Source: an uncultured delta proteobacterium (lineage in GTDB: Bacteria; Desulfobacterota; Desulfobacteria; Desulfobacterales; B30-G6). Taken from it: a DNA stretch of 64,000 nt. Within the stretch, counting starts at the first letter, position 1, and every line of letters begins with the position of its first letter. Where the stretch lies: NCBI GenBank assembly GCA_963823335.1, contig CAWGLD010000001.1, positions 544,001 through 608,000 on the forward strand. The letters run 5' to 3'. Shown one piece after another: positions 13,786-32,880 of the stretch. The notes under the pieces are model-generated. The model did not search any database. It saw nothing but the letters and a program-made list of their open reading frames with translations, and had not been told where the DNA came from. The position numbers and the translations under genes are program-made.

Positions 13786-14994
13786 ATGAACAACCCGCCT
13801 GCAGTAGCCGTTGTCGGTACATTTGATTCAAAGGGAGAAGAACATCTGTTCCTCAAGAACCGTATTGAAGAATTGGGGCTCCAGGTGTTGACCGTAAATG
13901 TCGGGACCAGAGAACCCATTCCCTTCGAAGTATCCCATGACCTGTATGCGTCCATGAAAAAGGATGCGACACTGGATGACAGTAACCGGGACAAAGCCAT
14001 TCAGGGAATGATCCATGGAGGCATACAGTTAATAAAACAACTGTATCGCGATGGTAAAATCCAGGCCATGATATCCGCCGGCGGTGGCAGTGGAACGCAC
14101 CTCTGTTCCAGTATCATGCGCGAACTCCCTATCGGGGTTCCAAAGGTGATGGTTTCAACCGTTGCCTCTCGAGACATGAAGCACACTGTCGGCACCAAAG
14201 ACATCACCATGATGCACAGCGTGGTGGACCTGCTGGGGGTGAACAGCATTTCCGGAATTATTCTGGACAAGGCCGCAGCAGCCGTTTGCGGCATGACCAT
14301 GAGTCAATGGCGGCCTGCTAAAGACAAAAGACGTATTGCACTCTCATTTTTCGGCTTCATCACAAAATCGGCCGAAGCAGTTAAAAAGGCCCTGGAGGGC
14401 ATGGGCTATGAAGTGATTCCCTTTCATGCCAATGGCACCGGCGGTATGGCCATGGAGGAGCTGGCCGCAGAAGGATATTTTGACGGCATTCTCGATCTGG
14501 CAACCCATGAACTGGCCGATGCGTTGATGGGTGGCTACTGCAGCGGCATCGGGCCCGGGCGTTTCGAGCCGTCTGCGGGGAAAAATATTCCCCGGCTGAT
14601 CACACCGGGAGGTCTTGACTGTGCCGTGCTCGAATTTACTCGCCAGCATGTTCCCGAAGAATACAGGAACCGCAAGGTATTTTATTATGACTTCAGATCC
14701 GCCATTCGCCTCACCCTCGAAGAGAGCCGGGTACTGGCTGAACAGCTGTCTGACAGACTGAACAAGGACGTGAAAAATGTTCATGTCCTGGTTCCCACCC
14801 AAGGATGGTCCGAAGCAGACCAGCAGGACGGACCGCTGTATGACCCTGAAACAAATGCATATCTGGTTAAAATTTTCAAAGAAAAACTGGACAAACGCAT
14901 TCAGCTTCAGGAAATCGACATGCACATCAATGATCCTGGTTTTGCTCAAATTGCGGCCAATGTAATGGATCAGATGGTCAAAGAGCGCAGCTAA
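13786..14994 (+). CDS. Tm-1-like ATP-binding protein (UPF0261), paralog 1
   Basis: GTFDSKGEE, GGGSGT, LPIGVPKVMVST, FHANGTGGMAMEEL, HINDPGFA. Confidence 0.88.
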   Translation: MNNPPAVAVVGTFDSKGEEHLFLKNRIEELGLQVLTVNVGTREPIPFEVSHDLYASMKKDATLDDSNRDKAIQGMIHGGIQLIKQLYRDGKIQAMISAGGGSGTHLCSSIMRELPIGVPKVMVSTVASRDMKHTVGTKDITMMHSVVDLLGVNSISGIILDKAAAAVCGMTMSQWRPAKDKRRIALSFFGFITKSAEAVKKALEGMGYEVIPFHANGTGGMAMEELAAEGYFDGILDLATHELADALMGGYCSGIGPGRFEPSAGKNIPRLITPGGLDCAVLEFTRQHVPEEYRNRKVFYYDFRSAIRLTLEESRVLAEQLSDRLNKDVKNVHVLVPTQGWSEADQQDGPLYDPETNAYLVKIFKEKLDKRIQLQEIDMHINDPGFAQIAANVMDQMVKERS

Positions 14995-15034
14995 ATGTCT
15001 AACTCCGAATATCAAAAGCGGAGATCTTCCAAAA

Positions 15035-15913
15035 ATGATTATCAAACCCGATTGCATCCCCTGTATCTTGAACATGTCTTTGCACTATCTTCGCAAACTG
15101 TCCCTTGGCGAGGAACAGGTCAACAAGATCTGTTCAGATATTCTGACATTGCGACCCCTCAGGGGAGAGATATGGGATATCACCAGCCCGGAAATCATCG
15201 AGCCGATCATGAAGAAAATCATGTCCGCTGTCGGCAGTCACGATCCCTTTGCAGTTGAAAGGGTAAAGCAGAACCAGAAGATGCTGACGCTGTATCCACA
15301 GCTGCAAAAAATGGTAAAGACAGCTGAGCATCCATTTAAAGCAGCAGCACACCTCGCCGGTCTTGGAAATGCCATCGATGTCATGCTGGTGGGGGGTGCC
15401 ACAGATATTCAGAAAATCATCAAAGAACAACTCGCCGATCCTCTGCCGGAAAATGTATTAGAGATACTTGAAAAACGGATCATGAGCAGTCGCCACATTC
15501 TCTACTTTGGCGACAATGCCGGAGAAATCGTTCTGGACAGGCTGTTCATCGAAACGATCAAAGAGCACTATGATACAGACATTACCTTTGTGGTCAGAAG
15601 TATGCCGACCTTGAACGATGCAACCCTGAAAGATGCAGAACAGACAGGTATGGCCAATCTGGTGCGTGTCATGGAGAACGGTATCGATGGTCCTGTCCCC
15701 GGAACCCTGCTGAATCGATGCTCAGGTGAGTTGCAGCGTCTTTTTCAGGAGGCGGATCTGATCATATCCAAAGGCGGTGGGAATTTTGACACCCTGGATG
15801 AGCTGCCGGAGAAGCGCAAAAGCAAGATATCCTATCTGCTGCTGTCAAAATGCCGCCCCTACCAAGAGCATTTTGGTGTGGGATTGCAGCGGGCGATACT
15901 ATTTAACGCTTAG
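15035..15913 (+). CDS. DUF89/ARMT1-like damage-control phosphatase
   Basis: N-terminal CxxC (DCIPC), GNAID, DNAGEIVLD, LNDAT, ISKGGGNF, KC. Confidence 0.88.
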   Translation: MIIKPDCIPCILNMSLHYLRKLSLGEEQVNKICSDILTLRPLRGEIWDITSPEIIEPIMKKIMSAVGSHDPFAVERVKQNQKMLTLYPQLQKMVKTAEHPFKAAAHLAGLGNAIDVMLVGGATDIQKIIKEQLADPLPENVLEILEKRIMSSRHILYFGDNAGEIVLDRLFIETIKEHYDTDITFVVRSMPTLNDATLKDAEQTGMANLVRVMENGIDGPVPGTLLNRCSGELQRLFQEADLIISKGGGNFDTLDELPEKRKSKISYLLLSKCRPYQEHFGVGLQRAILFNA

Positions 15914-15927
15914 AGAACTTTAAAAAA

Positions 15928-16110
15928 GGGTTTGAGGGTGATACAAGGGTGGTACAAGGGTTCGAGGGGGATAAAGGGGTTCGAGGGTCAGAGGGGGATA
16001 CAAGGGTTGGAGGGTGGCTGACAGCAGTTAGCGAAAGGCACCTAATAGTCTACAGTCTAAACCGCTAAAAGGCTAACCAGGGGTGGAGGGTGGTACAGGG
16101 GTTGGAGGGA
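15928..16110 (+). repeat. G-tract post-stop element, copy B (longest)
   Basis: About ten GGG tracts, then the core TGGCTGACAGCAGTTAGCGAAAGGCACCTAATAGTCTACAGTCTAAACCGCTAAAAGGCTAACCAGGG. Confidence 0.8.
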
Positions 16111-16116
16111 AATAAC

Positions 16117-16328
16117 TGTCATTTGCTTCGCGTAAATGAAAATGTTTCAGCTGTTAGGTTTTAAGTGTTAGGTAAGTCACGGGCTAAGAGCAACAATAAA
16201 TTACGCGCGCAGCGCAAATGACAGCCGAAGGCGAAATGTCGCGCGCAGCGCAAATGTCGTCCGCTAGGACAAATGACGCACGAAGTGCAAATGACATCCG
16301 AAGGATAAATGACGCCTGAAAGGCGAAT
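16117..16328 (+). repeat. Mini-hairpin array 1 (7 units of ~18 bp)
   Basis: AAATG(A/T)C linker plus variable 4-bp stem with GCA/GAA loop; inverted unit TGTCATTTGCTTCGC upstream. Confidence 0.8.
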
Positions 16329-16342
16329 GCACAGGGGGGCCC

Positions 16343-17554
16343 ATGCAGAAACCAAGCGTACTTCTTGTGGCAACAATGGATACCAAGTTCAGGGAAGCCG
16401 GCTTCATAGAATCCTGTCTCAAAGAATCCGGCTGTGCGGTCACGGTTATGGATGCCGGGATTCGTGGCGATAGCCCCGTACCTGTCACAATTACAAGACA
16501 CGAAGTCGCCCGGGCCGGCGGAAAAACATTATCGGAAATTCAATCCATAGGCCACGAAGGCGAAGCTCTCAACATGATGCTCATGGGCGCCTGCAGGATT
16601 GCGGACGAAATGATCGCCAAGGGTGCCGTCATTGGTGTCATAAGTCTGGGCGGCTCCATGGGAACCACACTCGGTACGGGTGTCATGCGCCGATTTCCCA
16701 TCGGGGTCCCAAAGGTGATGATCTCCACCATGGCCTCCAGGGATACCCGCACGTTTGTGGGAACAAAAGACATTCTTATGCTGCACGCCGTCTGTGATCT
16801 CTCGGGCCTCAACCGGTTTTCGAGAAAAATACTCCACAACGGCGCCATGGCCCTCTACGGCATGGTGTCCCGGAGCCGGAAAGACATTTCATCAGACAAA
16901 TCCATGATCTTTATTTCCACTCTGGGAACCACCGAGAAATGTGTTCAGGAGATACGCGCCTCCCTCGAAAAACAGGGTAAGGAAGTCGTGGTCTTTCACA
17001 CGGTGGGTTCCGGCGGCAGAGCCATGGAAGAACTCATCGCCTCAGAACCGGTTGAAGCCCTGGTGGACCTCTCCCTGCATGAAATGGCGGATCATCGTTT
17101 CGGAGGGGATTACGATGCAGGACCTGACAGGGGTTCCGTGGCATTGAAAAAGGGGATTCCGGTCGTCCTGGTACCCGGAAATATCGATTTTCTTGTGTCA
17201 GGACCGCTGGAGCAGTCCCTGAAAGATTTTCCCGATCGGCCGTACCATGTTCACAATACAGCCATTACGGTTGTACGAACGACCCGTGAAGAGATTGAAA
17301 GCATTGCCCGGCATGTAGGGGATTATTGTAATGCCGCCCCTGGACCGTACACCCTGGTAATTCCCATGAAGGGATTTTCAGCCTTTGACGCCATAGAGGG
17401 GCCGCTTCACGACCCCCAGGCACCGACCTGCTTTGTCAAAGCCCTGGAATCCCAGCTGTCCGACACATCACGGATGCACACCCTGCCATACCACATCAAT
17501 GATTCCGGCTTTTCTGCAGCTGTGATTGAAAAGCTCCAAGAACTGTTGCCCTGA
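16343..17554 (+). CDS. Tm-1-like ATP-binding protein (UPF0261), paralog 2
   Basis: ATMDTKFRE, GGSMGT, FPIGVPKVMIST, FHTVGSGGRAMEEL, HINDSGFS. Confidence 0.88.
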   Translation: MQKPSVLLVATMDTKFREAGFIESCLKESGCAVTVMDAGIRGDSPVPVTITRHEVARAGGKTLSEIQSIGHEGEALNMMLMGACRIADEMIAKGAVIGVISLGGSMGTTLGTGVMRRFPIGVPKVMISTMASRDTRTFVGTKDILMLHAVCDLSGLNRFSRKILHNGAMALYGMVSRSRKDISSDKSMIFISTLGTTEKCVQEIRASLEKQGKEVVVFHTVGSGGRAMEELIASEPVEALVDLSLHEMADHRFGGDYDAGPDRGSVALKKGIPVVLVPGNIDFLVSGPLEQSLKDFPDRPYHVHNTAITVVRTTREEIESIARHVGDYCNAAPGPYTLVIPMKGFSAFDAIEGPLHDPQAPTCFVKALESQLSDTSRMHTLPYHINDSGFSAAVIEKLQELLP

Positions 17555-17560
17555 TCTCTA

Positions 17561-17935
17561 TCAGAAGCCATCAACAACCATCTTCCTGAAAAAAGCTATT
17601 GTGTCTTTTGCTTCAGTAATTACTGAATAAATAAGAACGCAAAACTGAAGACCAAAAATAACGCTTTCTAAAATAAAGAACTGTCTTGGGCTTGCGGTAA
17701 AAACAAGAAAAGGAACCAGTATCGCCGATAGCCAGAGAAAAATATAACGGAATATAATCTTTTTCTTCCGATTTTTTTCCCTTATCAGAGAAATAATTTT
17801 CAACATAACATAAACAATAATAATATCCGAGATGCTCCACAATATCCCTTGAACTTTTGTGGTCAACAGATAGGCTTCTGTTGAAAAGCTCTTACCTATT
17901 TCCCAAAAAAACATATCTGTTAATTCTGAGATCAT
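17561..17935 (-). CDS. Hypothetical membrane protein (AT-rich)
   Basis: 124 aa, about 3 hydrophobic segments; overlaps the upstream gene's stop. Confidence 0.65.
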   Translation of the reverse strand: MISELTDMFFWEIGKSFSTEAYLLTTKVQGILWSISDIIIVYVMLKIISLIREKNRKKKIIFRYIFLWLSAILVPFLVFTASPRQFFILESVIFGLQFCVLIYSVITEAKDTIAFFRKMVVDGF

Positions 17936-18528
17936 GCTAGCTTCTTTTTTAATAGGAAGAATATTTTAAGCCCAATCAGACCAACAATCCATTCTATGAT
18001 AATCCAGAACATCCCGCATATTTTGATGTAAAAAGTAAAAGAATTTTGTATGTTCCTATGGGTATACCCGTCCATATCGACCAATGAGCCAAGATATGAA
18101 TGGTAGGCAGCATAAAATGAAAAAAGACCTAGGAAGAATATACCCGGCCCAAATAAAAGAATCCTATTAAGTATTGGTTTTTTTCTCTCGATAACAATTC
18201 TTAACAGATTATAGATTTTGAAAACATAAATAACGATAGCCGCCTCGATTGCTACCCAGAGGGTGCAAAAGAAATTCCACAAATAGCTGTAATAGAAATA
18301 TCCTAATGGTTTGTATTTATTGCTTAAATACTTGTCGATATGTATCTCCTGGCCGAAGTTCAAACAGACAAGAAGAACAAAAACAGTGATACAAAAATAG
18401 ATAAATGCTATTTGCCGGGCGTCACCATTTTTAAGAAAAATAAACCCTTTTCTGATATAAATCATAACCAATCCTTCGGCGAACAGCCAAAAGATTCCCA
18501 TGATCTTTATAAAGAATGATAAACTCAT
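17932..18528 (-). CDS. Hypothetical membrane protein (AT-rich) with repeated W-x3-E helices
   Basis: 198 aa, about 5 hydrophobic segments; FWLFAE, LWVAIE, FWIIIE. Confidence 0.65.
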   Translation of the reverse strand: MSLSFFIKIMGIFWLFAEGLVMIYIRKGFIFLKNGDARQIAFIYFCITVFVLLVCLNFGQEIHIDKYLSNKYKPLGYFYYSYLWNFFCTLWVAIEAAIVIYVFKIYNLLRIVIERKKPILNRILLFGPGIFFLGLFSFYAAYHSYLGSLVDMDGYTHRNIQNSFTFYIKICGMFWIIIEWIVGLIGLKIFFLLKKKLA

Positions 18529-18561
18529 GTCTCTTAACCTGGATGACGCCTACAACATTTT

Positions 18562-19242
18562 CTAAACGAGCATATCCGTCAAATCCGCGATGCTGTCAAT
18601 GACGGCATCCGGGTTTTCCCGGCTCAACGCTTTATGGTCGTCAAACCCGGTGAGCACGCCAACCGTCTTCATCCCGGCTGCCTTACCCGCCTGAATATCT
18701 ATACGCGCATCCCCCACATACATGCAGTCCCGGGGCAGGACGCCAAGACTTTTACAGCCCTTTATCAATGGATCCGGCGCCGGCTTTTTACGGGGTGCAT
18801 CCTCTGCATGGATGATGAACTCCAGCAGCTTGTCAATGCCTGAGTCCACCAGTGTCGGCAGTTTGACCGCCATGCTTTGCCGGGGCGTGGATGTAACAAT
18901 GCCCATCCTGATCCCTTTTTGCACCATGGCCTGCAGGGCTTTTTTTGCATCAGGGATCAGTTTTACCTGGTTTCTGAAAAGATTTGGATATATTTCGGCA
19001 ATGATCTCACGGGTTTTCTTTATCAGGTGGTCTTTTTCTTGGGGTGTTTTTTTCGGGAACACACTGCCCCATTCAAAATCACCATTTTTTGCTGCCTCCC
19101 GAAGTCTGTCCCTGGAAGGCATCGGAAAATCGAGTCGATTGAATACTATTTCAATAATCTGGTAGTATATGTGAATGGAGTCCAGAATCGTTCCATCGAG
19201 GTCAAACAAAACAGCAGTCACATTAATTTTCTTATTGTTCAC
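18562..19242 (-). CDS. HAD-family phosphatase (Gph/PpaX-like)
   Basis: FDLDGT, VTS, KKPAPDP, YVGDARID. Confidence 0.9.
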   Translation of the reverse strand: MNNKKINVTAVLFDLDGTILDSIHIYYQIIEIVFNRLDFPMPSRDRLREAAKNGDFEWGSVFPKKTPQEKDHLIKKTREIIAEIYPNLFRNQVKLIPDAKKALQAMVQKGIRMGIVTSTPRQSMAVKLPTLVDSGIDKLLEFIIHAEDAPRKKPAPDPLIKGCKSLGVLPRDCMYVGDARIDIQAGKAAGMKTVGVLTGFDDHKALSRENPDAVIDSIADLTDMLV

Positions 19243-19800
19243 CTAATTATCCTGCGCTTTCTTCTTGTGCATCCAAAAATAGTAAAAGGCCAACAAGGTC
19301 ATGCCATTGTCGATGCGATTGTCATGAATCTCGGAAGAAACATGGGCCAGGGGAAGCTTGATGACATCCAGGTCTTCCCCTTCATCCAAGGCGGGTGCCT
19401 GCTGAAATTCAGCATCCATGGCCAGGCATACAACACATTTGTTGCTCAATATGGCCGGCTGGGGAAAACATTCACCAATCACACGAAAATCCCTGGATCC
19501 ATAGCCGGTCTCCTCCAAAAGCTCTCTCCGGGCGGCTGCAATGGGAGAAGGATCATCCGGGTCCACCAGCCCGCCAGGCAGCTCCAGGTGTACCTTCTCG
19601 GTGCCATGGCGGTACTGGTTGACCATCACGACTTCCTGTTCCGCGGTAAGCGCCAGCACCACAACCCAGGTGGGGAAGTGAATGGCCATCACATTCATGG
19701 TCTTCCCGGTTCTGGGCGAGCGTGCCTCTTTTGATTCTATCTGCATGAGTTTGAAATCATGCAGGATTTTTCGATTCAATATTTTCCACGGTCGGATCAT
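19243..19800 (-). CDS. Nudix hydrolase (ADP-ribose pyrophosphatase/NudF-like)
   Basis: QYRHG, ELPGGLVD...AARRELLEETGY Nudix box; start set at ATG 19800 with RBS AAGGAG. Confidence 0.88.
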   Translation of the reverse strand: MIRPWKILNRKILHDFKLMQIESKEARSPRTGKTMNVMAIHFPTWVVVLALTAEQEVVMVNQYRHGTEKVHLELPGGLVDPDDPSPIAAARRELLEETGYGSRDFRVIGECFPQPAILSNKCVVCLAMDAEFQQAPALDEGEDLDVIKLPLAHVSSEIHDNRIDNGMTLLAFYYFWMHKKKAQDN

Positions 19801-19825
19801 TCTGACAACTCCTTGATTACGCAAT

Positions 19826-19942
19826 GTTTTAGGTGTTAGGTATTAAGTTTTAGGTTCAGCCACAAGACAGGTGCCCCTTTGCTGTCCGCTAATGGCCGTC
19901 ACCCTTATACCACCCTCCGACCCTCCAACCCCCTCATCACCC
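19826..19942 (-). repeat. G-tract post-stop element, diverged minus copy plus CTAAAAC heptamers
   Basis: Reverse complement: GGG tracts, ...GGGGCACCTG..., ACCTAAAACTTAATACCTAACACCTAAAAC; follows the LysR stop. Confidence 0.55.
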
Positions 19943-20890
19943 TCACCTCTGCTGGGCCAGTATCTTCAACATCAAGGCCCCGATATCCTGTGGTCGCATA
20001 TCTTCGGAGCGTAATTTTTTCAAGACTTTTTCAAAAGCCCTGGCAGGCATGGACAAGGGTTGCTTTTTCAGGTAGGCAAAACTGACGTCAAGATAAATCT
20101 GTTGTCCTTTGAGGGGAATCGTGGCCAATTTTCCTTCTTCGATTTCCGCAGCCACACAGGCCTTCACAAGAATGGAAACCCCCTCCCCTTTCTGAACCAG
20201 CTGTTTGATAAATTCGTTGTTACTGGTTTCCATGAGAACATTGGGTGTACAATCATGCTGTTTAAAAAGCATGTTCACGCGCTTTCGGGTTCCTGAACCT
20301 GTTTCCTTCATGATCAGCGGCTCTTTAGCCAGGTCCTGGGGGGAGATGTCTCCTTCGGCTGTCAGCGGGTGATTTACCGGAACAACAAGAATCAGCTCTT
20401 CCTGACTGAAAGGAACAAATGTAACCGCTGGATTCTCTGATGCCTTTGCAATGACAGCCACTTCATTCTTGAATTCCAGGAGGGTGTTGGTCATGTCCAG
20501 TGAGCTGCCCTCATCCAGATGAATTTTGATGCCGGGGTAGTCTTTATGAAAGCTGGAGAGCAGCGACGGCATAAAATAGCGCGCATAGGTCTTGGTGGTT
20601 CCCAGCCTCAGAACACCCCGTTTCAGCTCCTTCATGTCATCGATGACGTTCTCGATTTCTTTTTCATATTGAAAGATTTTCTGGGTGTATTCATACAGTG
20701 TCTTGCCTTCTTCCGTCAGATGTATCTGGCGTCCCTTTTTCTTGAACAGCTTCAGGTTGCATCCTTCTTCCAGTGCCTTGACCTGGGCCGTTACAGCCGG
20801 TTGTGTTACGAAGAGCATGCCTGCCGCAACCGTAAAACTGGCATGCTTCGCTGCATAATGAAAGGTCCTGAGCTGGTTGAAGTTCAACAT
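19943..20890 (-). CDS. LysR-family transcriptional regulator
   Basis: MLNFNQLRTF...SFTVAAGMLFVTQPAVTAQVKALEE HTH; start trimmed to ATG 20890. Confidence 0.92.
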   Translation of the reverse strand: MLNFNQLRTFHYAAKHASFTVAAGMLFVTQPAVTAQVKALEEGCNLKLFKKKGRQIHLTEEGKTLYEYTQKIFQYEKEIENVIDDMKELKRGVLRLGTTKTYARYFMPSLLSSFHKDYPGIKIHLDEGSSLDMTNTLLEFKNEVAVIAKASENPAVTFVPFSQEELILVVPVNHPLTAEGDISPQDLAKEPLIMKETGSGTRKRVNMLFKQHDCTPNVLMETSNNEFIKQLVQKGEGVSILVKACVAAEIEEGKLATIPLKGQQIYLDVSFAYLKKQPLSMPARAFEKVLKKLRSEDMRPQDIGALMLKILAQQR

Positions 20891-20983
20891 GAACGTCTTC
20901 CTTTTTGAAGTATCTCCCAACAAGTCACGGGGCAAGCGCGCGCTGTCGTGTTTCAAAACTTTTATTTATGGAAAATAAATCAC

Positions 20984-21049
20984 ATAAGAAAATGTTATAA
21001 TCAACATAAATTTAATTGAATTGACAGAATATTTTAGTTACTCCATAAA
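20984..21049 (+). promoter_or_regulatory. LysR box and sigma70 promoter of ppsA
   Basis: ATAA-GAAAATG-TTAT (T-N11-A) at 20984-20998; TTGACA 21021-21026, 17 nt, CATAAA. Confidence 0.65.
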
Positions 21050-21207
21050 TATTTATATTATATCTCCTTCTGCTGCTGAATGTTTTTGCTGATACTTCTT
21101 ACTGAGACTGGTTTCAGAGCCTCCATTATTCATCGTCCAAGCTTACCCTGCGGACCTTCAGGGTTCGGCAAAATTCCTATTAACCCCACACAAAAAGGAG
21201 GATAAAA

Positions 21208-23064
21208 ATGCCGGACGAAAAAGGAAGATTTCCAGATCCCCACGAGATTCAGGTTCCCCCGGAACTTGAGGGATGGGAGGAGATGTATCCATCACATCAC
21301 CTCTTTTCCAAGGACAGAGCAGACTGGGAAAAAGCGCAATTCTGGTATCAGGACAAGATCCATGCACCCGAGCCGGTGCCACCCCTGGATCTCATTTTTC
21401 AGGAGGCGTGGCAGATCTCCCTTTCCCAGTACACTACCCGGGTATTTTGTATTCCACCTGCCCAGGGAATCGCCCAGAGAATGGTGGGCTGTTACCTGTA
21501 CATCTGTGCCATTGCGCCCCCACCCGACGAAATTATCGGCCAGAAAGCAGCCCTGTTCGAAAAACGCGTTTTCTATGTATTTGAGCACTATGATGAACTG
21601 TGGGAAAAATGGCTCACAAAGTTCAAGGCGCTGGGCCAGGAAATGGAGGACGTGAAGGTCCCGGCGGAGTTGCCGAAATTTGTTCCGGATGATGAAGTGC
21701 TGCCCGCGCCTAAGGGCTACTACGATTCATACACACTCCTCGAATCTTTCGACAAACTTGTCAACCAGATGTTCAAGGGCTGGCAATATCATTTTGAAAT
21801 GCTCAATCTGACCTATCTGGCCTACCTCATGTTTGCCGATGTAGCCAGAAAACTTTTCCCGGGAATCAGTGAAAGCGCCATCGGCAAGATGGTGGCCGGC
21901 GCATATGTTTCCATGTTCAAACCGGAGGAGGAATTGTGCCGACTCGCCAGACTGGCACATTCGACCCAGGCCGTGGCGGATATTTTAAGGAGCGACAACA
22001 CGGCGGCGGAAAAAATCGCCACGCTTGAAAAAATATCTGAAGGTAAAAACTGGCTGGCGGAATATGAAAAATCCAAAGACCCCTGGTTCTCTGTGTCCTG
22101 CGGCAGCGGCTGGTTTCATCATGAAGGCAGCTGGACAACCAACCTCGATATTCCTTTCAGCTATCTCAAGAGTTATGTGGACCGTTTAGCCAATGGAGAA
22201 ACCATCGAACGTGCCCTGGAGGAGATCGGTAAAGAACGGGACAAAATCGTCGAAGAATACAAAAATCTCATCCAGACCGACGAAGACAGACAATCCTTCG
22301 ACGGTGCCTACAACACCATCCGAACCATCTATCGATATGCCGAGGATCATCTCTTCTGGGTGGAACATTGGTTCCATACCATTTGGTACAGAAAAATCCG
22401 GAAGATCGGGAAACTGCTTGTCGACAACGGGATGATCGATCAAGTGGATGACATTTTCATGTTCAACCGTTACGAAATTCCGCAACTTCTGACCGAAGTT
22501 TCAACGGCCTGGGCCCTGGGCGTAGACATACCCATGAGAAGTTCCCACTACAAGGCCAAGGTTGTCAAGCGTCGAAGCATTCTGGAGGCCGCCGGAAAAT
22601 GGAATCCGACACCGGCACTGGGTGTTCCGCCTGCAGAAGTGGCCGAGCCGTTTACGATCATGCTGTGGGGCATCACCACGGACAGGGTGCAGGAATGGCT
22701 CAAGGGCGTCGATGCGGCCCAGGAAGGCGATGTTTCCGAAATCAAAGGCTTTGCTTCTTCCGCCGGTGTAGCTCAAGGACCCGCAAGGGTACTGAAGTTA
22801 CTCAAGGACATCCTGGATCTGCAGCCCGGAGAAGTACTGGTTTGTCCCTCAACCAACCCGTCCTGGGCACCTGTTTTTACCAACATCAAAGCAGCCGTTA
22901 CCGACATTGGCGGTCTCACAAGTCATGCGGCCATCGTCTGCAGAGAATACGGTATTCCGTCCGTCACGGGGACGGGTGTGGCTACGTCTGTTATCAAGAC
23001 CGGCGATATCGTCAAGGTAGACGGCGATACGGGTTTGGTAGAGGTAATCGAACGGGCAGGGTAA
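21208..23064 (+). CDS. ppsA: Phenylphosphate synthase subunit A-like (PEP-utilising His domain)
   Basis: [35 protein letters not shown] and phospho-His motif [15 protein letters not shown]; matches my recollection of Thauera PpsA along its length. Confidence 0.85.
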
Positions 23065-23101
23065 TCCGACACCTACGTTGCCCGAACAACCATTTAAGCA
23101 T

Positions 23102-23134
23102 GTTTGGAGCGGTGTAACCAACGCCGCTCCAAAC
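23102..23134. terminator. Hairpin between ppsA and ppsB
   Basis: GTTTGGAGCGG...CCGCTCCAAAC inverted repeat. Confidence 0.5.
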
Positions 23135-23156
23135 TTCCTAAAACCCGTAAACGGGG

Positions 23157-24233
23157 GTGGAAATGGAGTATGTTCTTACTTTCCTGGAGGTAGACAAAAA
23201 TTCACTGTCGCTGGTTGGCGGCAAAAACGCCAGTCTGGGAGAATTGATAAAGGCGGACATTCGCGTGCCTCCCGGTTTTGCCGTAACCACGGAGAGTTAT
23301 CATAAATTTATCACCGAAACCGGGATCAGGGACAAGATTTTCCAAATACTATCGGACATGAAGCCGGGAGACATTGCCGCCCTGAATGCCGCCAGCGAAA
23401 GTATCCAGACGCTGATACAGGGTTCAGCCCTGTCGGAAGACATCCGATCGGCCATCGAAAAAGCATATGCGGAGCTCTGCGCCGACTGCCGGGTAATCGA
23501 CATGCCGGTGGCGGTTCGTTCAAGCGCTACGGCCGAAGACCTGCCCACGGCCAGCTTCGCCGGTCAACAGGACACCTATCTCTGGATTCAGGGTCACAAA
23601 GATGTCGCGGAAAAGGTTCAGCGCTGCTGGGCCAGCCTGTTTACACCCCGGGCCATCGATTATCGTGTAAAAAATAAGTTTGCACATGAGAAAGTTCTGA
23701 TCAGCGTAGGGGTTCAGAAAATGGTGAACTCCAGAGCTGCCGGGGTTATGTTTACATTGAACCCGACCGACGGCGACCTGTCCAAGGTCGTTATCGAAGG
23801 CAGCTGGGGGCTGGGGGAGACTGTCGTTTCCGGCTCCGTCAATCCGGACAAGTTCGTGGTAGACAAGGTGGTCATGGAAACTTCAGACAAGACCATTTCC
23901 ACCAAACACATCGCCTGCGTATACGACCCGCAGGCAGGTAAGGTCGTGGATGCGGATGTGGATGAAGACATGCAGTGCAAATGCTGTCTGGAGGATATGG
24001 AAGTCAAGGCCCTGGTGAGCATGGGCAAGTTGATCGAACGGCACTACAAGCGCCCCATGGACATCGAATGGGCCATCGATAAAGACCTCGATTTCCCCGA
24101 GAATATCTTTATCGTGCAGGCGCGGCCGGAGACCGTCTGGAGCCAGCGTAAGACACGCTCGCTAATCGGCGCTAAAAGCGGCTATCAACTTTTGATGGAA
24201 CAGGCCATGAAACGGATCAAGATACCCAGTTAA
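23157..24233 (+). CDS. ppsB: Phenylphosphate synthase subunit B-like (PEP-synthase ATP-grasp domain)
   Basis: VGGKNASLGEL, AVRSSATAEDLPTASFAGQQDTYL, DIEWA, QARPETVWS; lacks His and PEP domains. Confidence 0.85.
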   Translation: MEMEYVLTFLEVDKNSLSLVGGKNASLGELIKADIRVPPGFAVTTESYHKFITETGIRDKIFQILSDMKPGDIAALNAASESIQTLIQGSALSEDIRSAIEKAYAELCADCRVIDMPVAVRSSATAEDLPTASFAGQQDTYLWIQGHKDVAEKVQRCWASLFTPRAIDYRVKNKFAHEKVLISVGVQKMVNSRAAGVMFTLNPTDGDLSKVVIEGSWGLGETVVSGSVNPDKFVVDKVVMETSDKTISTKHIACVYDPQAGKVVDADVDEDMQCKCCLEDMEVKALVSMGKLIERHYKRPMDIEWAIDKDLDFPENIFIVQARPETVWSQRKTRSLIGAKSGYQLLMEQAMKRIKIPS

Positions 24234-24239
24234 AAAATA

Positions 24240-24388
24240 GGGTTCGAGGGTCCGAGGGTCCGAGTGGCGAAGGGTGGCTGACGGCAGTGAGCGAAAGGCA
24301 CCTGCAGCCTATCGTCTAAACGCCTAAAAGAAGTGCTTGGTTCTCAGCTGAAATTAACACTAAAACCTAAAACCTAAAACGAAAATAC
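24240..24388 (+). repeat. G-tract post-stop element, copy C, plus CTAAAAC heptamers
   Basis: GGGTCCGA octamers, core TGGCTGACGGCAGTGAGCGAAAGGCACCT, then ACTAAAACCTAAAACCTAAAAC. Confidence 0.75.
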
Positions 24389-24491
24389 TGCACTAACGTC
24401 TATACCGCAAAAAAAATCGTTTGGTAAAAATCATATGGGTTTTGTTTGCATGTTTGTTCAATTCTAACCAATAAAGGAGGACTGTTGCTCT

Positions 24492-25898
24492 ATGAAGAAC
24501 ATGAGAGATTTTATCACAGAAGGTGAGAAAAAGGGCCTGTGTAAACGAATTTCAGCTGAAGTCGATTGGAATCTGGAGTTGTCGCATATCGCCAAACTCA
24601 ATGAAGAGCAAAAGGGTCCGGCGCTGCTGTTTGAAAATGTGAAGGACTATGACACACCGGTGATTACCAGTGTCTGTACCACCCCTGAAAGACTGGCATT
24701 TATCCTTGGTCAACCATTGGATTCCACGCTTGTAGATCTCTACGCGCACTGGGCCAAGCTGGGGGACAACCTGTTGGAGCCCAAGTATGTGGAAAAAGCG
24801 GATGCGCCATGCAAAGAGAATATCATCACCGGGGACGACATTGACCTTTTCAAATTCCCCGTGCCGCAGTGGTATCCTCTGGACGGGGGCCGTTATATCG
24901 GGACCGCTCATTTCTTCATCAGCAAGGATCCCGAAACCGGCTGGGTAAACCTGGGAACCTACAGGGCTCAGCTATTGGGAAAAGACAAGATTGGCACCCA
25001 GTTTATCAAGGGCAAACATGCCGACATCATGCTGAAGAAATATCAAGCCATGGGGAAACCCATGCCGGTGGCTTCAGTAATCGGGTGTGATCCTCTGCTT
25101 TTTATCCTCGGTGCAGCACGCGTTTCAGCTTTTACTTCAGAATACGATGTGGCAGGCGCCCTGCGCGGTGAGCCTGTAGAAGTCGTTAAAGGAGAAATCG
25201 TCGATCTGCCCATTCCGGCACATGCCGAGATCGTGCTCGAAGGAGAAGTGGATGCCGACAAATTTATGGAAGAAGGACCGTTCGGTGAATATACCGGGTA
25301 TTATTCCGGCGTTGGTACGGATCCACGCAATTTCATGGATGTCCAATGTGTCACCCATCGTAACAATCCGATTCTCTGGGGAACCACCGTCGGCCGGGCC
25401 GTTACAGACACGCACATGACCATGGCACTGTCATATGGGGCCACCCTTTGGCAACAATTGTTGGCCATGAAGATTCCAGGCTTGAAAGCGGTTTACTGCC
25501 CGCCGGAAGGCTCCGGACGGTTTTTGGCCATCATCTCCATGAAGCAGATGTATCCCGGGCATGCAGACCAGGTGCTCACGGCTGCCATTTCAACGGAAAT
25601 GGGTGCCTATGGTCTGAAAACCGTCATCGTCGTGGATGAGGATATCGACCCCTGGGATATTCCCCGGGTCCTGTATGCCTTGAGTTTCAGATTCCAGCCC
25701 AACCGCAGTCAGGTCATCAAGAGAGGGCGGTCCACACCACTGGATCCGTCTCTGCCCATCAATGCGCGGGAAATTACCGGTAGACTTTTGTTGGATGCCA
25801 CCATACCCTATGACTGGAAACACAAACCGATTCCCATTGAACTGGACGCGGAAATGGTGAAAAGAGTCAAGTCGCGATGGTCTGAGTTGGGGTTATAA
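24492..25898 (+). CDS. ppcB: UbiD-family carboxylase, phenylphosphate carboxylase beta-like
   Basis: EVDWNLELSH, GPALLFE, DGGRYIGT, EGPFGEYTGYY, KRGRSTPLDP; resembles PpcB as recalled. Confidence 0.85.
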   Translation: MKNMRDFITEGEKKGLCKRISAEVDWNLELSHIAKLNEEQKGPALLFENVKDYDTPVITSVCTTPERLAFILGQPLDSTLVDLYAHWAKLGDNLLEPKYVEKADAPCKENIITGDDIDLFKFPVPQWYPLDGGRYIGTAHFFISKDPETGWVNLGTYRAQLLGKDKIGTQFIKGKHADIMLKKYQAMGKPMPVASVIGCDPLLFILGAARVSAFTSEYDVAGALRGEPVEVVKGEIVDLPIPAHAEIVLEGEVDADKFMEEGPFGEYTGYYSGVGTDPRNFMDVQCVTHRNNPILWGTTVGRAVTDTHMTMALSYGATLWQQLLAMKIPGLKAVYCPPEGSGRFLAIISMKQMYPGHADQVLTAAISTEMGAYGLKTVIVVDEDIDPWDIPRVLYALSFRFQPNRSQVIKRGRSTPLDPSLPINAREITGRLLLDATIPYDWKHKPIPIELDAEMVKRVKSRWSELGL

Positions 25899-25932
25899 AA
25901 ATAAAAACGCTCAATTTAGGAGGAGTTAGGTA

Positions 25933-26448
25933 ATGTCCGATACCGACATGATAGAAGACAAAAAGGTTCTGGTGGTTGATGATGAACAGGACATTCTGGA
26001 GGTTTTGGAAGAACTGCTGGATATGTGCCATGTGACAACAGCGTCGACCTTTGATCAGGCTAAAACCCTGTTGGAAACCCAGGCCTTTGACATCGCGATT
26101 CTCGATATCATGGGGGTTGACGGATATCGCCTGTTGGAAATTGCCAACAAGAAAAAGATACCCGCAATTATGCTTACAGCGCATGCATTCTCTGCCGGCA
26201 ACCTGGTAAAGACCATCAAAGAGGGTGCCTATGCCTATGTTCCCAAAGAAGAAATCGGCCGGATCGCCGAGTTTCTTTCAGATGCCTTGAACGCCAAAAA
26301 ACAAGGCAAAAATCCCTGGCGCGTCTGGGAGGAAAGACTGCCGTCATCCTATTTTGAAAAAAGATGGGGGGCGGCCTGGAAGAATTCGGACCGGGACTTC
26401 TGGAACAAATTCAGGGAAAGCATCAAAACGCGGGATGGGAAAAAATAA
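25933..26448 (+). CDS. Response regulator receiver protein
   Basis: VLVVDDE, AILDIMG, MLTA, YVPK, with a Trp-rich C-terminal extension. Confidence 0.85.
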   Translation: MSDTDMIEDKKVLVVDDEQDILEVLEELLDMCHVTTASTFDQAKTLLETQAFDIAILDIMGVDGYRLLEIANKKKIPAIMLTAHAFSAGNLVKTIKEGAYAYVPKEEIGRIAEFLSDALNAKKQGKNPWRVWEERLPSSYFEKRWGAAWKNSDRDFWNKFRESIKTRDGKK

Positions 26449-26527
26449 CGCAGTTATCCCCAACCAGGATAAACCGGTTGGAGTGAAGCGAAAACCCTGG
26501 CTTGCCGGGGAAAAGATAAGACCTTTT

Positions 26528-26607
26528 ATCACGAAAGCACGAAAGTACGAAAACACGAAAATTTTCATGGTCTTTTTCGTGTTTTTCAGATTTCGTGTTT
26601 TCGTGAT
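26528..26607. repeat. Inverted array of CACGAAA(A/G) octamers
   Basis: Four direct units followed by 3-4 reverse-complement units, forming a long imperfect hairpin. Confidence 0.75.
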
Positions 26608-26705
26608 TGCTTATATTTTTTTGCCACATAATTTACAAATTTTACAGTGCTCTGTGTCATTTGGACTTTATAGATAAGCATGAAAAAGAAAGAAGGAGGT
26701 TTGAA

Positions 26706-28361
26706 TTGAAACCGATTCGTTACCAGAAAGATATGATCGATGAATTTGTGACCGATGGTTACTGGACCGAAGAGCTTTTCTATGACTTCTGGGATAGAAA
26801 TGCCCGGGAAATCGGTAACCGGGAAGCGCTGGTAGACTCGAAATATCGCCTGACATGGTCTGAAGCCAAAAAACTGGTGGACGCCATGGCCATTTCCTGG
26901 GTGGAAATGGGAATTCCCAAACATTCCCGGGTCATCATTCAATCGCCCAACAGTGTCTACGGGTTTCTCGCCCGAATCGCCTGTGAGAGGGCCGGACTCA
27001 TTTCTCTTACGGTCTATCCATACCTTCGTCAGAGGGAATTGGAGTACATGCTGGAGAAAACAGAGGCCAAGGCAGTCGTTATTCTGAACATCTACAACAA
27101 ATTCAATTATCTAAAAATGTACACGGAGCTCCAGAAACAGTTTCCCCATCTAAAATATTTTTTTCTTTTCGACGATGACGTTCCGGACGATGCGCCTGCG
27201 GGTACCTATTCGCTGCCCCGGATGACCCAGCTCCGGGCAGAAAAACCAGTGGACGCATCCGTGCTGGCAGAACGCAGGTTGGACCCGTTCTGGAACATCT
27301 CCCTGCTCACGACCACATCCGGCACCACCGGTATCCCCAAGCTGGTGGAGTGGCCCACCGCGCCCCGCGTCTGCACATCCAAAGGCAGATGCGCCATCTG
27401 GAACCTCAACCGTGACGACACCACCATGGCCATCGCCCCTCATGCCGGCGGAGCGGCTGGAACACTGACGTATTTCGCCGCCCCCATTGCCGGTGCCAAA
27501 ACCGTGATGTTGGAGGAGTTTTCCGGCGAAGGCGCGCTGGCGCTCATCGAAAAAGAGAAAGCTACGGCCATCGGTGTGGTTCCCACCCACCTTATACGGA
27601 TGCTGGAGGCCGACGTCTCCAAATACGATCTGAGTTCTCTGCGGTTTATCCGCTCGGCCGGCGGGTATTTATCACCCCAGGTGGCCGAAGAAGCTGAAAA
27701 CGCATTTAAGGCAAGCATTACCAGCGACCTTGGGACCCAGGACAAGGGATCGGTGTCCGGGTGCAGCGTAGAGGATTCAAAGGATCTTCGCCGCAGAACC
27801 GTCGGCCGCATGCTTCCGGGCAACAAGGTGAGATTGCTGGACAAGGACACCGGCAAAGAAGTGCCCGAGGGCGAACCCGGAGTTCTCTGGCTCAGGGGCC
27901 CCCACGCCCCGGCAGGATACTTCCGGGACGAGGAATTGACCGCCACGGTGTTCGACAAGGACGGATGGACCACCACGGAGGATATCGTCAAATTCGATCA
28001 GGGCTGTCTGTGGATTCTGGGCCGGGCCAAGGACATGATCATCCGGGGAGGACAGAACATCTATCCTGCAGAGATCGAGGGCCTGCTCAATGATCATCCC
28101 GGGGTATCGTCTGTAGCGGTTGTGGGGTATCCGGACCGGGAGATGGGTGAACGGTGCTGTGCCTACGTCATCCCCAAGCCTGGTGTGGATTTTTCCTTTG
28201 ACGAAATGGTTTCTTTTCTCAAGGGGAAAAATATTGCCATGTTCAAACTTCCGGAACGGCTCGAAATTGTGTCTGAGTTTCCCCTGGTGGGAGATTCGGG
28301 CAAGGTCAACAAGGAAACCTTGAAGGAACAGATCAAGGCATTGGTTGAGAAGGGGAGCTAA
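26706..28361 (+). CDS. Aryl/acyl-CoA ligase (EntE/cyclohexanecarboxylate-CoA ligase-like)
   Basis: TSGTTGIPK, GRAKDMIIRGGQNIYPAEIE, FKLPERL, SGKVNK; start TTG 26706 after RBS AGGAGG. Confidence 0.85.
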   Translation: MKPIRYQKDMIDEFVTDGYWTEELFYDFWDRNAREIGNREALVDSKYRLTWSEAKKLVDAMAISWVEMGIPKHSRVIIQSPNSVYGFLARIACERAGLISLTVYPYLRQRELEYMLEKTEAKAVVILNIYNKFNYLKMYTELQKQFPHLKYFFLFDDDVPDDAPAGTYSLPRMTQLRAEKPVDASVLAERRLDPFWNISLLTTTSGTTGIPKLVEWPTAPRVCTSKGRCAIWNLNRDDTTMAIAPHAGGAAGTLTYFAAPIAGAKTVMLEEFSGEGALALIEKEKATAIGVVPTHLIRMLEADVSKYDLSSLRFIRSAGGYLSPQVAEEAENAFKASITSDLGTQDKGSVSGCSVEDSKDLRRRTVGRMLPGNKVRLLDKDTGKEVPEGEPGVLWLRGPHAPAGYFRDEELTATVFDKDGWTTTEDIVKFDQGCLWILGRAKDMIIRGGQNIYPAEIEGLLNDHPGVSSVAVVGYPDREMGERCCAYVIPKPGVDFSFDEMVSFLKGKNIAMFKLPERLEIVSEFPLVGDSGKVNKETLKEQIKALVEKGS

Positions 28362-28364
28362 AAC

Positions 28365-28460
28365 AGGGTCCAGGGGTGATACAAGGGTGGTAAGAGGGTT
28401 CGAGGGTGGCTGACGGCAGTGAGCGAAAGGCACCTAAAAGCCTACAGTCTAAAGCCCTAA
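28365..28460 (+). repeat. G-tract post-stop element, copy D
   Basis: GGGTGATACAAGGG... core TGGCTGACGGCAGTGAGCGAAAGGCACCTAAAAGCCTACAGTCTAAA. Confidence 0.8.
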
Positions 28461-28523
28461 TTTTCTGAACTAGGTTCATCGGCTTTTCGCTAGTGTCCGT
28501 CCAAAAATAGAGATTTTCGCGTT

Positions 28524-29735
28524 ATGCCAAAGCAGATCCTGATCATATCCACCCTGGACACCAAAGGGGTGGAAACACGTTACTTGAAGCAGAAAATCGA
28601 GGCGCTGGGTCTTTCCGCCATCCTCATGGATCTGTCCATGCGCGCTGACGTTAAACTGCCGGCTGAAATAACCAATGCCCAGGTGGCTGAAGCAGGCGGC
28701 AGCAGCATCGAAGAAATCGGGCAATCCCGTGAACGAAGCAAGATCACGAAAATCATGACGTCCGGGGCTTCCAAGCTGGCAAGGCAGTATTATGGCGAGG
28801 GCAGAATCGACGGTGTAATTGCAATGGGCGGATCCACCGGCACCCTGATGGCATCCGATGTGATGCGGTCCCTCCCTTTTGGTGTTCCCAAGACAGTTAT
28901 ATCTTCTACGGCAGCACTTCCCGGTCTTTCCACCAGGTATATCGGAACAGGGGATATTACGCTGTTTCATTCGGTAATCGAAATTTCCGGTCTTTCCAAT
29001 TTGTTAAAAAACGTGATGGACAGGGCAGCACACGCCATCACCGCCATGGTTCATGAGACAGTCACACCCCTGGTTACGGGCGAGGGAAAAGCCATCGCCC
29101 TGACCATGCTGGGTCCCTGTGAAAAATGTGCCAGCTTTGTCCGTATTGCCCTTGAAAAAGAAGGCTATCAGGTCATCGGCTTCTCCGCAGCCGGTGTGGG
29201 TGATCGGGCCATGGAACAGATGATCGCCGAAGGGTTTTTTCAGGGTGTCATCGACCTGGCGCCGGGTGGGGTCGGGGAGCATCTTTTCGGTTTTATGAGA
29301 GATGCAGGCCCGAATCGACTGGAAAATGCAGGCAGGATGGGAATTCCAATGATTGTTTCCACCTGCAGCGTCAATCACATGACACCCTCAAAGTCCAGAT
29401 ACCAAGCCGAATACCACCAGCGCCGCAAATATGACCTGGATAAATTTCGCACCTGGATACGATTGTCGCCGGAAGAGCTGCAGAGCGTTGCGCAAGCCTT
29501 TGCCGCGAAATTGAACAAAGCCGGCGGCCCGGTAAAATTCCTGATACCGCAGAATGGTTGGTCTTCGGTGGACCAGCCCGGCAATCCGACCCACGATCCA
29601 CAGGAGGACCGCATCTTCGTTGAGGTGCTGCAACAAAACCTGCGCCCGGACATCGACATCCTGGAAATACAGGCCAATATGGAAGACCCGGTCTTTGCCC
29701 AGGCTGTTGTTGAAACGGCATTGCATCTATTTTAA
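28524..29735 (+). CDS. Tm-1-like ATP-binding protein (UPF0261), paralog 3
   Basis: STLDTKGVE, GGSTGT, LPFGVPKTVISS, GDRAMEQM. Confidence 0.88.
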   Translation: MPKQILIISTLDTKGVETRYLKQKIEALGLSAILMDLSMRADVKLPAEITNAQVAEAGGSSIEEIGQSRERSKITKIMTSGASKLARQYYGEGRIDGVIAMGGSTGTLMASDVMRSLPFGVPKTVISSTAALPGLSTRYIGTGDITLFHSVIEISGLSNLLKNVMDRAAHAITAMVHETVTPLVTGEGKAIALTMLGPCEKCASFVRIALEKEGYQVIGFSAAGVGDRAMEQMIAEGFFQGVIDLAPGGVGEHLFGFMRDAGPNRLENAGRMGIPMIVSTCSVNHMTPSKSRYQAEYHQRRKYDLDKFRTWIRLSPEELQSVAQAFAAKLNKAGGPVKFLIPQNGWSSVDQPGNPTHDPQEDRIFVEVLQQNLRPDIDILEIQANMEDPVFAQAVVETALHLF

Positions 29736-29908
29736 TTGACCATATGCCTCTTGAAAAAGTAGCTCCTCTGGGATAAAGAATCGATTCTTTATTCTGCTGG
29801 GAAGCGAGGATGCTTGGAGACTGGGATGCTGCTGTCCGTTTTTATCTCTCAGCCACCCTCGAATCCTTGGCCTCTGGAACCCTTTTTCCTAAAAAAAGCG
29901 AGGTACCC

Positions 29909-30514
29909 ATGTCCAAACGAATTGTCATAGGAATATCCGGTGCAAGCGGTGTGACGTACGGTGTGCGCCTGCTCAGCCTGCTGAAAGACAGTGATTATGA
30001 AACGCACCTGATCTTGTCCGAATCCGGCAAACTCAATATCAAGATCGAGACAGCCTACACACCCGAGGAAGTCCAGGCCATGGCCAGTCATGTGTATGAC
30101 CACAAAGACATGGCCGCCGCTCTGTCATCCGGTTCTTTCCTGACCCAGGGCATGGTGGTGGTCCCGTGTACCATAAAGACCTTGTCCGGGATTGCCAACT
30201 CATATAACGAGAACCTTCTTGTGCGGGCCGCCGATGTCACATTAAAGGAAAAACGCAAACTGGTTCTGGTGGTGAGAGAAACGCCCCTGCACCTCGGTCA
30301 CCTGCGCCTCATGACACTGGCGGCGGAAATGGGAGCCCTTATTGTACCGCCGGTGCCCTCCTTTTATCATCAACCCGAAACCCTCCAGGACATCATCGAT
30401 CAAACCATCGGCAAGGTATTCGATTACCTCGGTATCGAACACGCGCTTTTTAATCGCTGGGGTGAGAACAAAAGAATGCCCAGGACACCCGATGCCTCAT
30501 TAAAAGCACTTTAA
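29909..30514 (+). CDS. ubiX: Flavin prenyltransferase
   Basis: IGISGASG, SSGSF, PCTIKTL, RAADVTLKEKRKLVLVVRETP, PSFYHQP; start ATG 29909. Confidence 0.93.
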   Translation: MSKRIVIGISGASGVTYGVRLLSLLKDSDYETHLILSESGKLNIKIETAYTPEEVQAMASHVYDHKDMAAALSSGSFLTQGMVVVPCTIKTLSGIANSYNENLLVRAADVTLKEKRKLVLVVRETPLHLGHLRLMTLAAEMGALIVPPVPSFYHQPETLQDIIDQTIGKVFDYLGIEHALFNRWGENKRMPRTPDASLKAL

Positions 30515-31259: not shown

Positions 31260-31268
31260 GACATAGCC

Positions 31269-31649: not shown

Positions 31650-31650
31650 C

Positions 31651-32241: not shown

Positions 32242-32271
32242 GTTGGATCACCTATTTCGTCACAACTTATT

Positions 32272-32879: not shown

Positions 32880-32880
32880 G

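Follow-up and report, generated by a model that had tools for sequence, protein, structure and literature searches.

Phenylphosphate carboxylation has been described in Thauera aromatica, where PpsAB lies upstream of PpcABCD and UbiX is also present (PMC6114531, PMC7500099), and where the delta subunit, PpcD, is a phosphatase that restores phenylphosphate carboxylation (PMC6114531). The phe cluster of Desulfatiglans anilini (H567DRAFT_02049-02059; PMC6114531, PMC7500099) has a single ppcB in the order ppcB-AMP ligase-UPF0261-ubiX together with ppsAB and a receiver gene, and its phenylphosphate carboxylation activity was not demonstrable in vitro (PMC6114531). The same report names as open questions by what route sulfate reducers that have one Ppc subunit carboxylate phenylphosphate, and how a cost of up to four ATP equivalents can be met. 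Here we analyse a comparable locus in an uncultured delta proteobacterium of the Desulfobacterales (contig CAWGLD010000001.1, positions 544,001 to 608,000; this stretch of 64,000 nucleotides is the window, and coordinates below are window positions), which carries three genes of the UPF0261 family, at 13786, 16343 and 28524, here called U1, U2 and U3. We propose, with a probability of roughly 0.3, that U3 is an aryl-phosphate:ADP phosphotransferase defining a second architecture for phenylphosphate carboxylation, in which the energy of the phosphate ester would be recovered as ATP and not hydrolysed, and that U1, U2 and U3 show one kinase fold specialised in three ways, for entry into the aryl-phosphate pool, for side substrates and for exit from it.

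Bacterial UPF0261 proteins had been taken as uncharacterised in the original prediction made for this DNA, a view that is outdated since MarK (Saro_1862) of Novosphingobium aromaticivorans is a demonstrated aromatic kinase (JBC 2025, PDB 9MPY, PMC12624787). MarK, the one member of the family characterised to date, is a stand-alone homodimer that phosphorylates the phenolic hydroxyl at the expense of ATP, leaving ADP; it depends on Lys16, and the phenol is held by G195, H219, H304 and H348, of which H219 and H304 are >90% conserved among MarK homologs (PMC12624787). Its 11 listed substrates are mainly para-acyl phenols, with compounds such as p-hydroxyacetophenone and p-hydroxybenzaldehyde favoured, and in acetovanillone catabolism it stands in for the dikinase AcvAB/HpeHI (PMC12624787). 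The N-terminal region of tomato Tm-1 (3WRW/3WRX/3WRY) and the TBST-paired bacterial UPF0261 proteins (PMC5028733) resemble U1-U3 in fold and in the ATP-binding lysine, whereas U1-U3 have neither a TIM-barrel domain nor a partner gene and belong to separate clades. We found no literature joining UPF0261 or Tm-1-like proteins to phenylphosphate, subscription papers being outside the search. In the passages found, PMC1924859 (Geobacter) names Gmet_2100-2102 only and makes no mention of UPF0261, PMC5946492 treats Pps-Ppc operons without a UPF0261 gene, and the main texts of PMC7500099 and PMC6114531 name neither Tm-1, UPF0261 nor the D. anilini UPF0261 genes discussed below.

Results

The operon of the window runs ppsA-ppsB-ppcB-receiver-AMP ligase-U3-ubiX, with a LysR gene divergent from it (Table 1), and its PpcB is recognised by TIGR02724 above the cut-off. 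With T. aromatica it shares PpsAB upstream, PpcB and UbiX, and probably the same overall conversion; it differs in that neither PpcA, PpcC nor the phosphatase subunit PpcD was found in the window, with U3 and the ligase in their place. PpcA gave 0 matches in the whole genome with a search that was positive in 19/66 genomes, and the other UbiD protein is only 31% identical to a PpcA. No PpcD occurs in the window, and an in-operon PpcD had no tblastn match in the genome; one weak KdsC-like match (89 bits) lies on another contig. For PpcC there was no match in the genome either to TIGR02725, a profile whose control matched nowhere, or by tblastn with an 85-aa query. The order ppcB-ligase-UPF0261-ubiX with ppsAB is that of D. 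anilini, and the lengths correspond, with ppcB (02059) at 468 aa, the ligase (02058) at 552 aa and the UPF0261 gene (02057) at 403 aa, followed by ubiX (02056); a further UPF0261 gene lies two genes off (02061). The two loci differ in the order of ppsAB and the receiver gene, and HCR genes lie inside the D. anilini cluster but not beside that of the window. From its position and length, U3 is probably orthologous to 02057.

Occurrence of U3 and of PpcA is mutually exclusive in our sample. Among 66 ppsA-positive Desulfobacterota genomes, PpcA (above cut-off) was found in 19 and a U3 ortholog (at least 53% identity) in 30, with an overlap of 0 where 8.6 were expected (Fisher 6.8e-7, a value overstated through kinship), and two families (f65 and f107) each contain both architectures, in different genomes. 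In PpcA-type loci ppcB is followed by one or two genes for PpcD-like phosphatases and then by ppcA and ppcC. Of the 17 ppsA-positive genomes with neither, 8 have U3', a sister-type gene located directly 3' of ppcB in operons without the ligase of the window, immediately following ppcB or in its place; in another, ppcB-ppcD stands at the end of a contig (L148; L numbers are our locus labels), and 8 remain. The suggestion that the UPF0261 proteins replace missing Pps/Ppc subunits is therefore supported for U3, which occurs where PpcA, PpcC and PpcD are missing, and not for U1 or U2.

The original prediction tied the three genes to pps/ppc and expected relatives to be enriched near such genes and induced with the cluster; neither check refuted this tie, which is supported. 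In 301 sampled genomes of the class (UPF0261 in 48, the ppsA query in 39, PF09370 in 4), UPF0261 was present in 39/39 ppsA-positive vs 9/262 ppsA-negative genomes, and in 351 genomes of the phylum in 55/66 vs 25/285; related genomes are not independent, so p-values for co-occurrence are overstated. U3 orthologs lie directly after the ligase in 27/27 class loci and within 12 kb of a pps/ppc gene in 26/27. The corresponding counts within 12 kb, which short contigs depress, are 5/18 for U1 orthologs and 1/6 for U2 orthologs, and ppsA-positive genomes hold 17/18 and 6/6 of these, respectively; U1 is thus a looser satellite of pps operons. At three loci (L083, L100, L113) U1 orthologs adjoin a carboxyltransferase and an AMP ligase, not pps genes, a context nearer that of MarK. 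U3 orthologs were present in 3/25 ppsA-negative genomes, all fragmented assemblies with the ligase still adjacent.

The same association is seen in metagenomes. Among the best 80 of 452 matching loci, the ligase precedes U3 in 59/60 of those with >500 nt upstream, ppcB is present in 19/19 of those with 7 kb upstream, and none has PpcA, PpcC, PpcD or a TIM barrel. Named relatives with U3 62-91% identical are Desulfobacterales and other deltaproteobacterial metagenome-assembled genomes. PpcB (77-98% identity) and the ligase stay with U3, whereas ppsA comes from either of two clades (~42% vs 75-93%) or is located apart from the U3 module (L163, L174-L176); U3 therefore belongs to the carboxylase module. 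Neighbours were counted in the 27 loci having 7 kb of upstream and 3 kb of downstream sequence, same-genus loci excluded. The receiver gene is present in 9/27, and ubiX in 26/27, often just 3' of U3, along with NUDIX and PAC_bac genes; HCR-type genes often come after the ppcB-ligase-U3-ubiX module.

Induction with the cluster is borne out for the D. anilini gene at the position of U3. The supplement table of PMC7500099 contains four D. anilini UPF0261 proteins, of which 02057 had a mean mass spectrometry (MS) area of 2.47e9 on phenol vs 1.80e8 on benzoate, a 13.7-fold difference over three replicates with wide spread. In the same supplement, 03869 of the aniline cluster was detected in 2/3 aniline, 2/3 4-aminobenzoate and 0/6 other samples, and 02061 and 02365 were low and not induced. 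Extracts of D. anilini neither consumed nor carboxylated phenylphosphate in an assay without nucleotide or CoA, and a ppcD candidate was absent from the proteome (PMC6114531); recombinant D. anilini PpcB proteins gave no phenylphosphate conversion (PMC7500099). Two further loci (L110, L115) have the order ppsB-UPF0261-ligase-ppsA-ppcB of the D. anilini aniline cluster (03868-03872), and their UPF0261 protein has M at H219.

As had been predicted, U1, U2 and U3 are diverged paralogs of about 403 aa (33-34% pairwise identity), with U3 flanked by the AMP-forming ligase and ubiX. Each matches PF06792 and PF23189 (E 1e-52 to 1e-68) and NF002674 above cut-off, and all have the T-x-D-[TS]-K (TFDSK, TMDTK and TLDTK) and GG-x-x-GT motifs. 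The 4.37 Mb genome has no other PF06792 match, and all three lie inside 16 kb; U1 and U2 are located 4-7 kb upstream of ppsA, past minus-strand genes, with an ARMT1-like phosphatase gene between them. Since the arrangement on one contig recurs in 4/9 same-genus genomes, the three-gene cluster is an inherited feature, not an artefact of assembly. In a tree of 75 sequences (family trees omit fragments <290-300 aligned residues and identical sequences) the three fall into separate clades, and on this and their low identity we reject a recent tandem duplication.

The best PDB match of a profile built from the three proteins is MarK (9MPY), and pocket residues are given here in MarK numbering. U2 aligns with 9MPY almost without gaps over residues 2-402 (E 1.4e-99), keeps D-T-K, G195, T196, H219, E247, D282, F283 and H304, and thus by sequence the G195, H219 and H304 of the phenol pocket, and changes I285V and H348F. 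U1 keeps D-S-K, G195, H219, E247 and D282 and changes T196F, H304Y, N305D and L308R, so that G195 and H219 of the pocket are retained and H304 is replaced by Y. U3 aligns with MarK over its full length (E 3.1e-54) and retains the essential lysine in D-T-K, as well as G195, and changes T196P, H219S, E247G, D282N, F283H, H304L, N305D and L308R; it fails the phenol-pocket test at H219S and H304L, and a few U3 orthologs retain H219. By these residues U2 passes the tests for a MarK-type kinase, and U3 is best called a variant whose pocket does not. E247 may pair with H219, and R308 may face the pocket. The two-domain Tm-1/MarK fold, assigned to U1 and U2 by alignment, is present in the predicted model of U3 (pLDDT 86), which superimposes on Tm-1 with Z 39.0 (rmsd 3.4, 384 aligned) and on 9MPY with Z 32.0 (rmsd 6.8, 391 aligned), against Z <=10.6 for unrelated folds.

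The altered site of U3 is itself conserved. Among 31 U3 orthologs, D-T-K and the glycine loop vary little or not at all, and N284, D306, R309 and R313 are invariant. The U3 clade (35 sequences, support 0.96) includes U3' and the aniline-type copies, with G247, D305 and R308 common; the aniline-type copies alter H219 to M, and therefore the pocket tracks the pathway substrate. In the U3' copies at L107, L111, L114, L118, L124, L131, L165, L167 and L177, which lie directly behind ppcB in genomes without the ligase of the window, the ATP-site lysine is an arginine (D-T-R or D-E-R).

No TIM-barrel partner was found, in agreement with the original prediction: PF09370 matched nowhere in the genome (93.9% complete; search control positive in 1/14 genomes), and the PF09370 protein of a relative, used as a tblastn query, gave no match either. 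We reject this absence as an anomaly, since PF09370 occurs in only 4/301 class genomes. It is lacking from 44/48 UPF0261-positive class genomes, and all 4 genomes that have it carry it beside a UPF0261 match; according to PMC5028733, TIM-barrel genomes nearly always hold UPF0261 and the converse does not apply. The TIM-adjacent UPF0261 copies (L041, L059, L065) group apart from U1-U3 in the tree.

Discussion

The closest functional precedent for these proteins is MarK, which U1-U3 resemble in two-domain fold and length, in the ATP-site D-[TS]-K and in having no TIM-barrel domain; its gene likewise sits in an operon for aromatic phosphorylation and carboxylation, and its phenol pocket is kept in U2. 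The settings differ, as MarK takes the place of a dikinase and supplies a biotin carboxylase whose target is an acetyl side chain, whereas the window has the dikinase PpsAB and a UbiD carboxylase acting on the ring, and the pocket of U3 is rebuilt. None of the acvCDEF/hpeCBAD biotin carboxylase families was found among the 59 window proteins scanned, the search being confined to the window. The best explanation is that U1, U2 and U3 are stand-alone aryl phosphotransferases of the MarK family, from three clades that are old and separate, and not subunits of one complex, with U3 the dedicated member. Since a phosphotransferase fold stands where the phosphatase is missing, U3 would most simply handle the same phosphoryl group. 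With a likelihood falling just short of even, we consider that U3 takes over the role of PpcD and strips phenylphosphate of its phosphoryl group for PpcB, the single carboxylase; ADP is the likeliest acceptor, though this is a more doubtful part of the proposal.

In the proposed scheme, PpsAB would convert phenol and ATP (to AMP) into phenylphosphate, with phenol itself the probable substrate of this organism by homology. PpcB, in an operon without PpcD, PpcA and PpcC, would carboxylate only free phenol(ate). U3, beside PpcB, would catalyse phenylphosphate + ADP -> phenol + ATP, i.e. the MarK reaction reversed, after which PpcB could carboxylate the phenol, and the adjoining ligase would capture 4-hydroxybenzoate as its CoA ester, pulling two uphill steps. 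Energetically, the U3 reaction would run uphill by some 10-15 kJ/mol and the carboxylation by about 6 kJ/mol. Both could be covered by the ligase together with the high level of phenylphosphate permitted by the dikinase, and the conversion of phenol to 4-hydroxybenzoyl-CoA would then cost three ATP equivalents rather than four. A forward kinase is the likeliest role for U1 and U2: U2 probably acts as a MarK-like kinase on para-acyl phenols and U1 probably on another, possibly carboxylated, phenol, each as a side activity.

Several observations weigh against this scheme. The ligase is excluded in the same way (0/31 genomes without U3; control 5/5), and because it follows the identical pattern, the exclusion does not single out U3. 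Two PpcA/D-type loci (L133, L178) carry a UPF0261 gene of other clades in or beside the operon, and such clades do occur in PpcA-type genomes. U3 is without H219 and H304, the phenol-binding residues of MarK, and MarK itself is inactive on phenol and 4-hydroxybenzoate (PMC12624787). The MarK forward reaction uses up its substrate stoichiometrically (PMC12624787), so that transfer to ADP is uphill, and the scheme needs gating, otherwise a futile cycle is a risk. A HD, HAD or metallo-phosphatase gene is found in 18/27 U3 loci (HD 11, HAD 10, metallophosphatase 8), with none constant. In D. anilini, 02057 lies ~7-fold under PpcB in MS area (replicate 1; PMC7500099 supplement), which argues against a 1:1 subunit; the authors attribute the failed extract assay to oxygen damage and describe a second phenol-induced UbiD, 33% identical to PpcA (PMC6114531). 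Furthermore, aniline was turned into 4-aminobenzoate by recombinant D. anilini proteins with no UPF0261 protein present (PMC7500099), although the phosphoamidate is said to be very unstable in water. The U3 clade has no demonstrated activity, and we infer catalysis, direction, substrate and the ADP acceptor alike.

It is also conceivable, though unlikely, that U3 works forward as a kinase of the carboxylation product, 4-hydroxybenzoyl-CoA or 4-hydroxybenzoate, which would block back-decarboxylation or prime the hydroxyl for reductive removal while a generic phosphatase frees phenol. The strict pairing of U3 with the ligase fits this idea, as do the HCR-type genes that often follow the module and the preference of MarK for para-acyl phenols, to which the CoA ester is similar; R308, as placed by alignment, could bind an anion. 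Yet U3' sits behind ppcB in genomes without this ligase, a fifth ATP equivalent would be spent in energy-limited cells, dephosphorylation would fall to neighbours missing in 9/27 loci, and D. anilini extracts consumed no phenylphosphate (PMC6114531).

Quite unlikely, in our estimate, is a non-catalytic role, in which U3 binds ATP or aryl phosphate and serves PpcB or the ligase as an accessory, sensor or scaffold, perhaps paired with U1 or U2. U3 has lost the equivalents of H219, E247, D282 and H304, the Tm-1 fold serves ATP-bridged protein binding (PMC12624787), and the protein occurs where three Ppc subunits are missing. Against this stand the near-invariance of D-T-K and the glycine loop in 31 orthologs, the conservation of the altered pocket, and the lack of induction of the flanking D. 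anilini paralog 02061 with its cluster; with the ATP lysine retained, the sensor or accessory role that was the first guess for these proteins is not supported. Nor does the hetero-oligomer once suggested for the three fit their distribution, in which U3 is the sole PF06792 match in 15/27 U3 genomes, all three clades occur together in 5/27 only, and few U1 or U2 orthologs lie near pps/ppc genes. An obligate three-way hetero-oligomer is unlikely. A complex prediction for PpcB and U3, both as 31-row alignments, scored 0.00 and was counted neither for nor against binding.

Still less probable is that each of the three acts as a forward kinase that broadens substrate entry or lowers its cost, by phosphorylating substituted phenols that are poor substrates for PpsAB or by recapturing escaped phenol at one ATP, not two. 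MarK does replace AcvAB/HpeHI, about 1/4 of the genomes with either kinase hold both (PMC12624787), and U2 retains the MarK pocket; for U3, such a role leaves unexplained the exclusion of PpcA/C/D and the constant company of ppcB and the ligase at loci whose ppsA is exchanged or lies apart. Cofactor supply by U3, e.g. by phosphorylating prenol to the dimethylallyl phosphate that UbiX uses, would suit the frequent ubiX, NUDIX and PAC_bac neighbours but is highly improbable, as PpcA-type operons hold ubiX yet no U3 and the known substrates of the family are phenols.

If U3 is the proposed phosphotransferase, strict anaerobes would gain ATP by substrate-level phosphorylation from phenylphosphate rather than hydrolysing it, and the failed D. 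anilini assay may owe to the lack of added ADP or CoA. In any case, an overlooked co-induced gene is now named, and for the step left unexplained in sulfate-reducing bacteria U3 is a candidate that can be tested. The MarK family, known from the aerobic catabolism of lignin monomers, is extended to the anaerobic carboxylation of the ring, and the window adds three UPF0261 clades side by side, with a split of their probable roles.

Gene map and further observations

Table 1. Genes of the UPF0261 and pps/ppc region, in window coordinates.
Feature	Position	Strand	Remarks
U1, UPF0261 protein	13786..14994	+	402 aa; satellite clade of pps-bearing genomes
ARMT1/DUF89-like phosphatase	15035..15913	+	immediately 3' of U1
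U2, UPF0261 protein	16343..17554	+	403 aa; most MarK-like of the three
HAD-family phosphatase, phosphoglycolate-phosphatase-like, not PpcD-like	18562..19242	-	rival dephosphorylation candidate
NUDIX hydrolase	19243..19824	-	
LysR regulator	19943..20956	-	divergent from ppsA; position conserved
PpsA-like phenylphosphate synthase alpha, phospho-His subunit	21208..23064	+	618 aa; NF006153 above cut-off
PpsB-like ATP-binding subunit	23157..24233	+	358 aa; PPDK_N domain
PpcB, single UbiD carboxylase of the operon	24492..25898	+	468 aa; TIGR02724 507.7 bits (cut-off 468.95)
Stand-alone receiver-domain protein	25933..26448	+	present in 9/27 comparable loci
AMP-forming aryl-CoA ligase	26607..28361	+	likely start 26706, ~551 aa; constant upstream neighbour of U3
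U3, UPF0261 protein	28524..29735	+	403 aa; within ppcB-ligase-ubiX module
UbiX flavin prenyltransferase	29810..30514	+	likely start 29909

Contigs from RNA libraries (4 runs) cover genes of both strands and the spacers equally, so neither transcription nor its ranking can be read from them, and a promoter and terminator scan gave counts at shuffle level (14 vs 16.8 and 29 vs 21.3, respectively). A G-rich composite intergenic repeat stands directly after stop codons at 12724-12828, 15978-16082, 24236-24303 and 28370-28474, with copies in the ppsB-ppcB and the ligase-U3 spacers, and 63 blastn pieces of it were found genome-wide. Between U2 and the HAD gene, at 17561-18528 (minus strand), are two hydrophobic low-GC open reading frames (124 and 198 aa) with no Pfam or NCBIfam match, absent from the same-genus loci mapped.

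A protein of ~365 aa without a Pfam match, 74-82% conserved, adjoins ppsAB in several genomes (L121:6925-8031, L122, L124, L157, L165). Elsewhere in the genome (L159, G000:C5 184000-203999, G000 being our label for the window's genome), a second UbiD gene sits amid aldehyde oxidoreductase, cupin and xanthine-oxidase-family genes, i.e. another aromatic or heterocycle pathway. Downstream of ubiX, at 30558-36802, a tungsten-type aldehyde oxidoreductase clade member with Fe-S partners, a MTHFR C-terminal-like protein and an EutA-like ATPase are encoded, and this gene group is met again, with 65-87% identity, next to the pps/ppc operon of other families.

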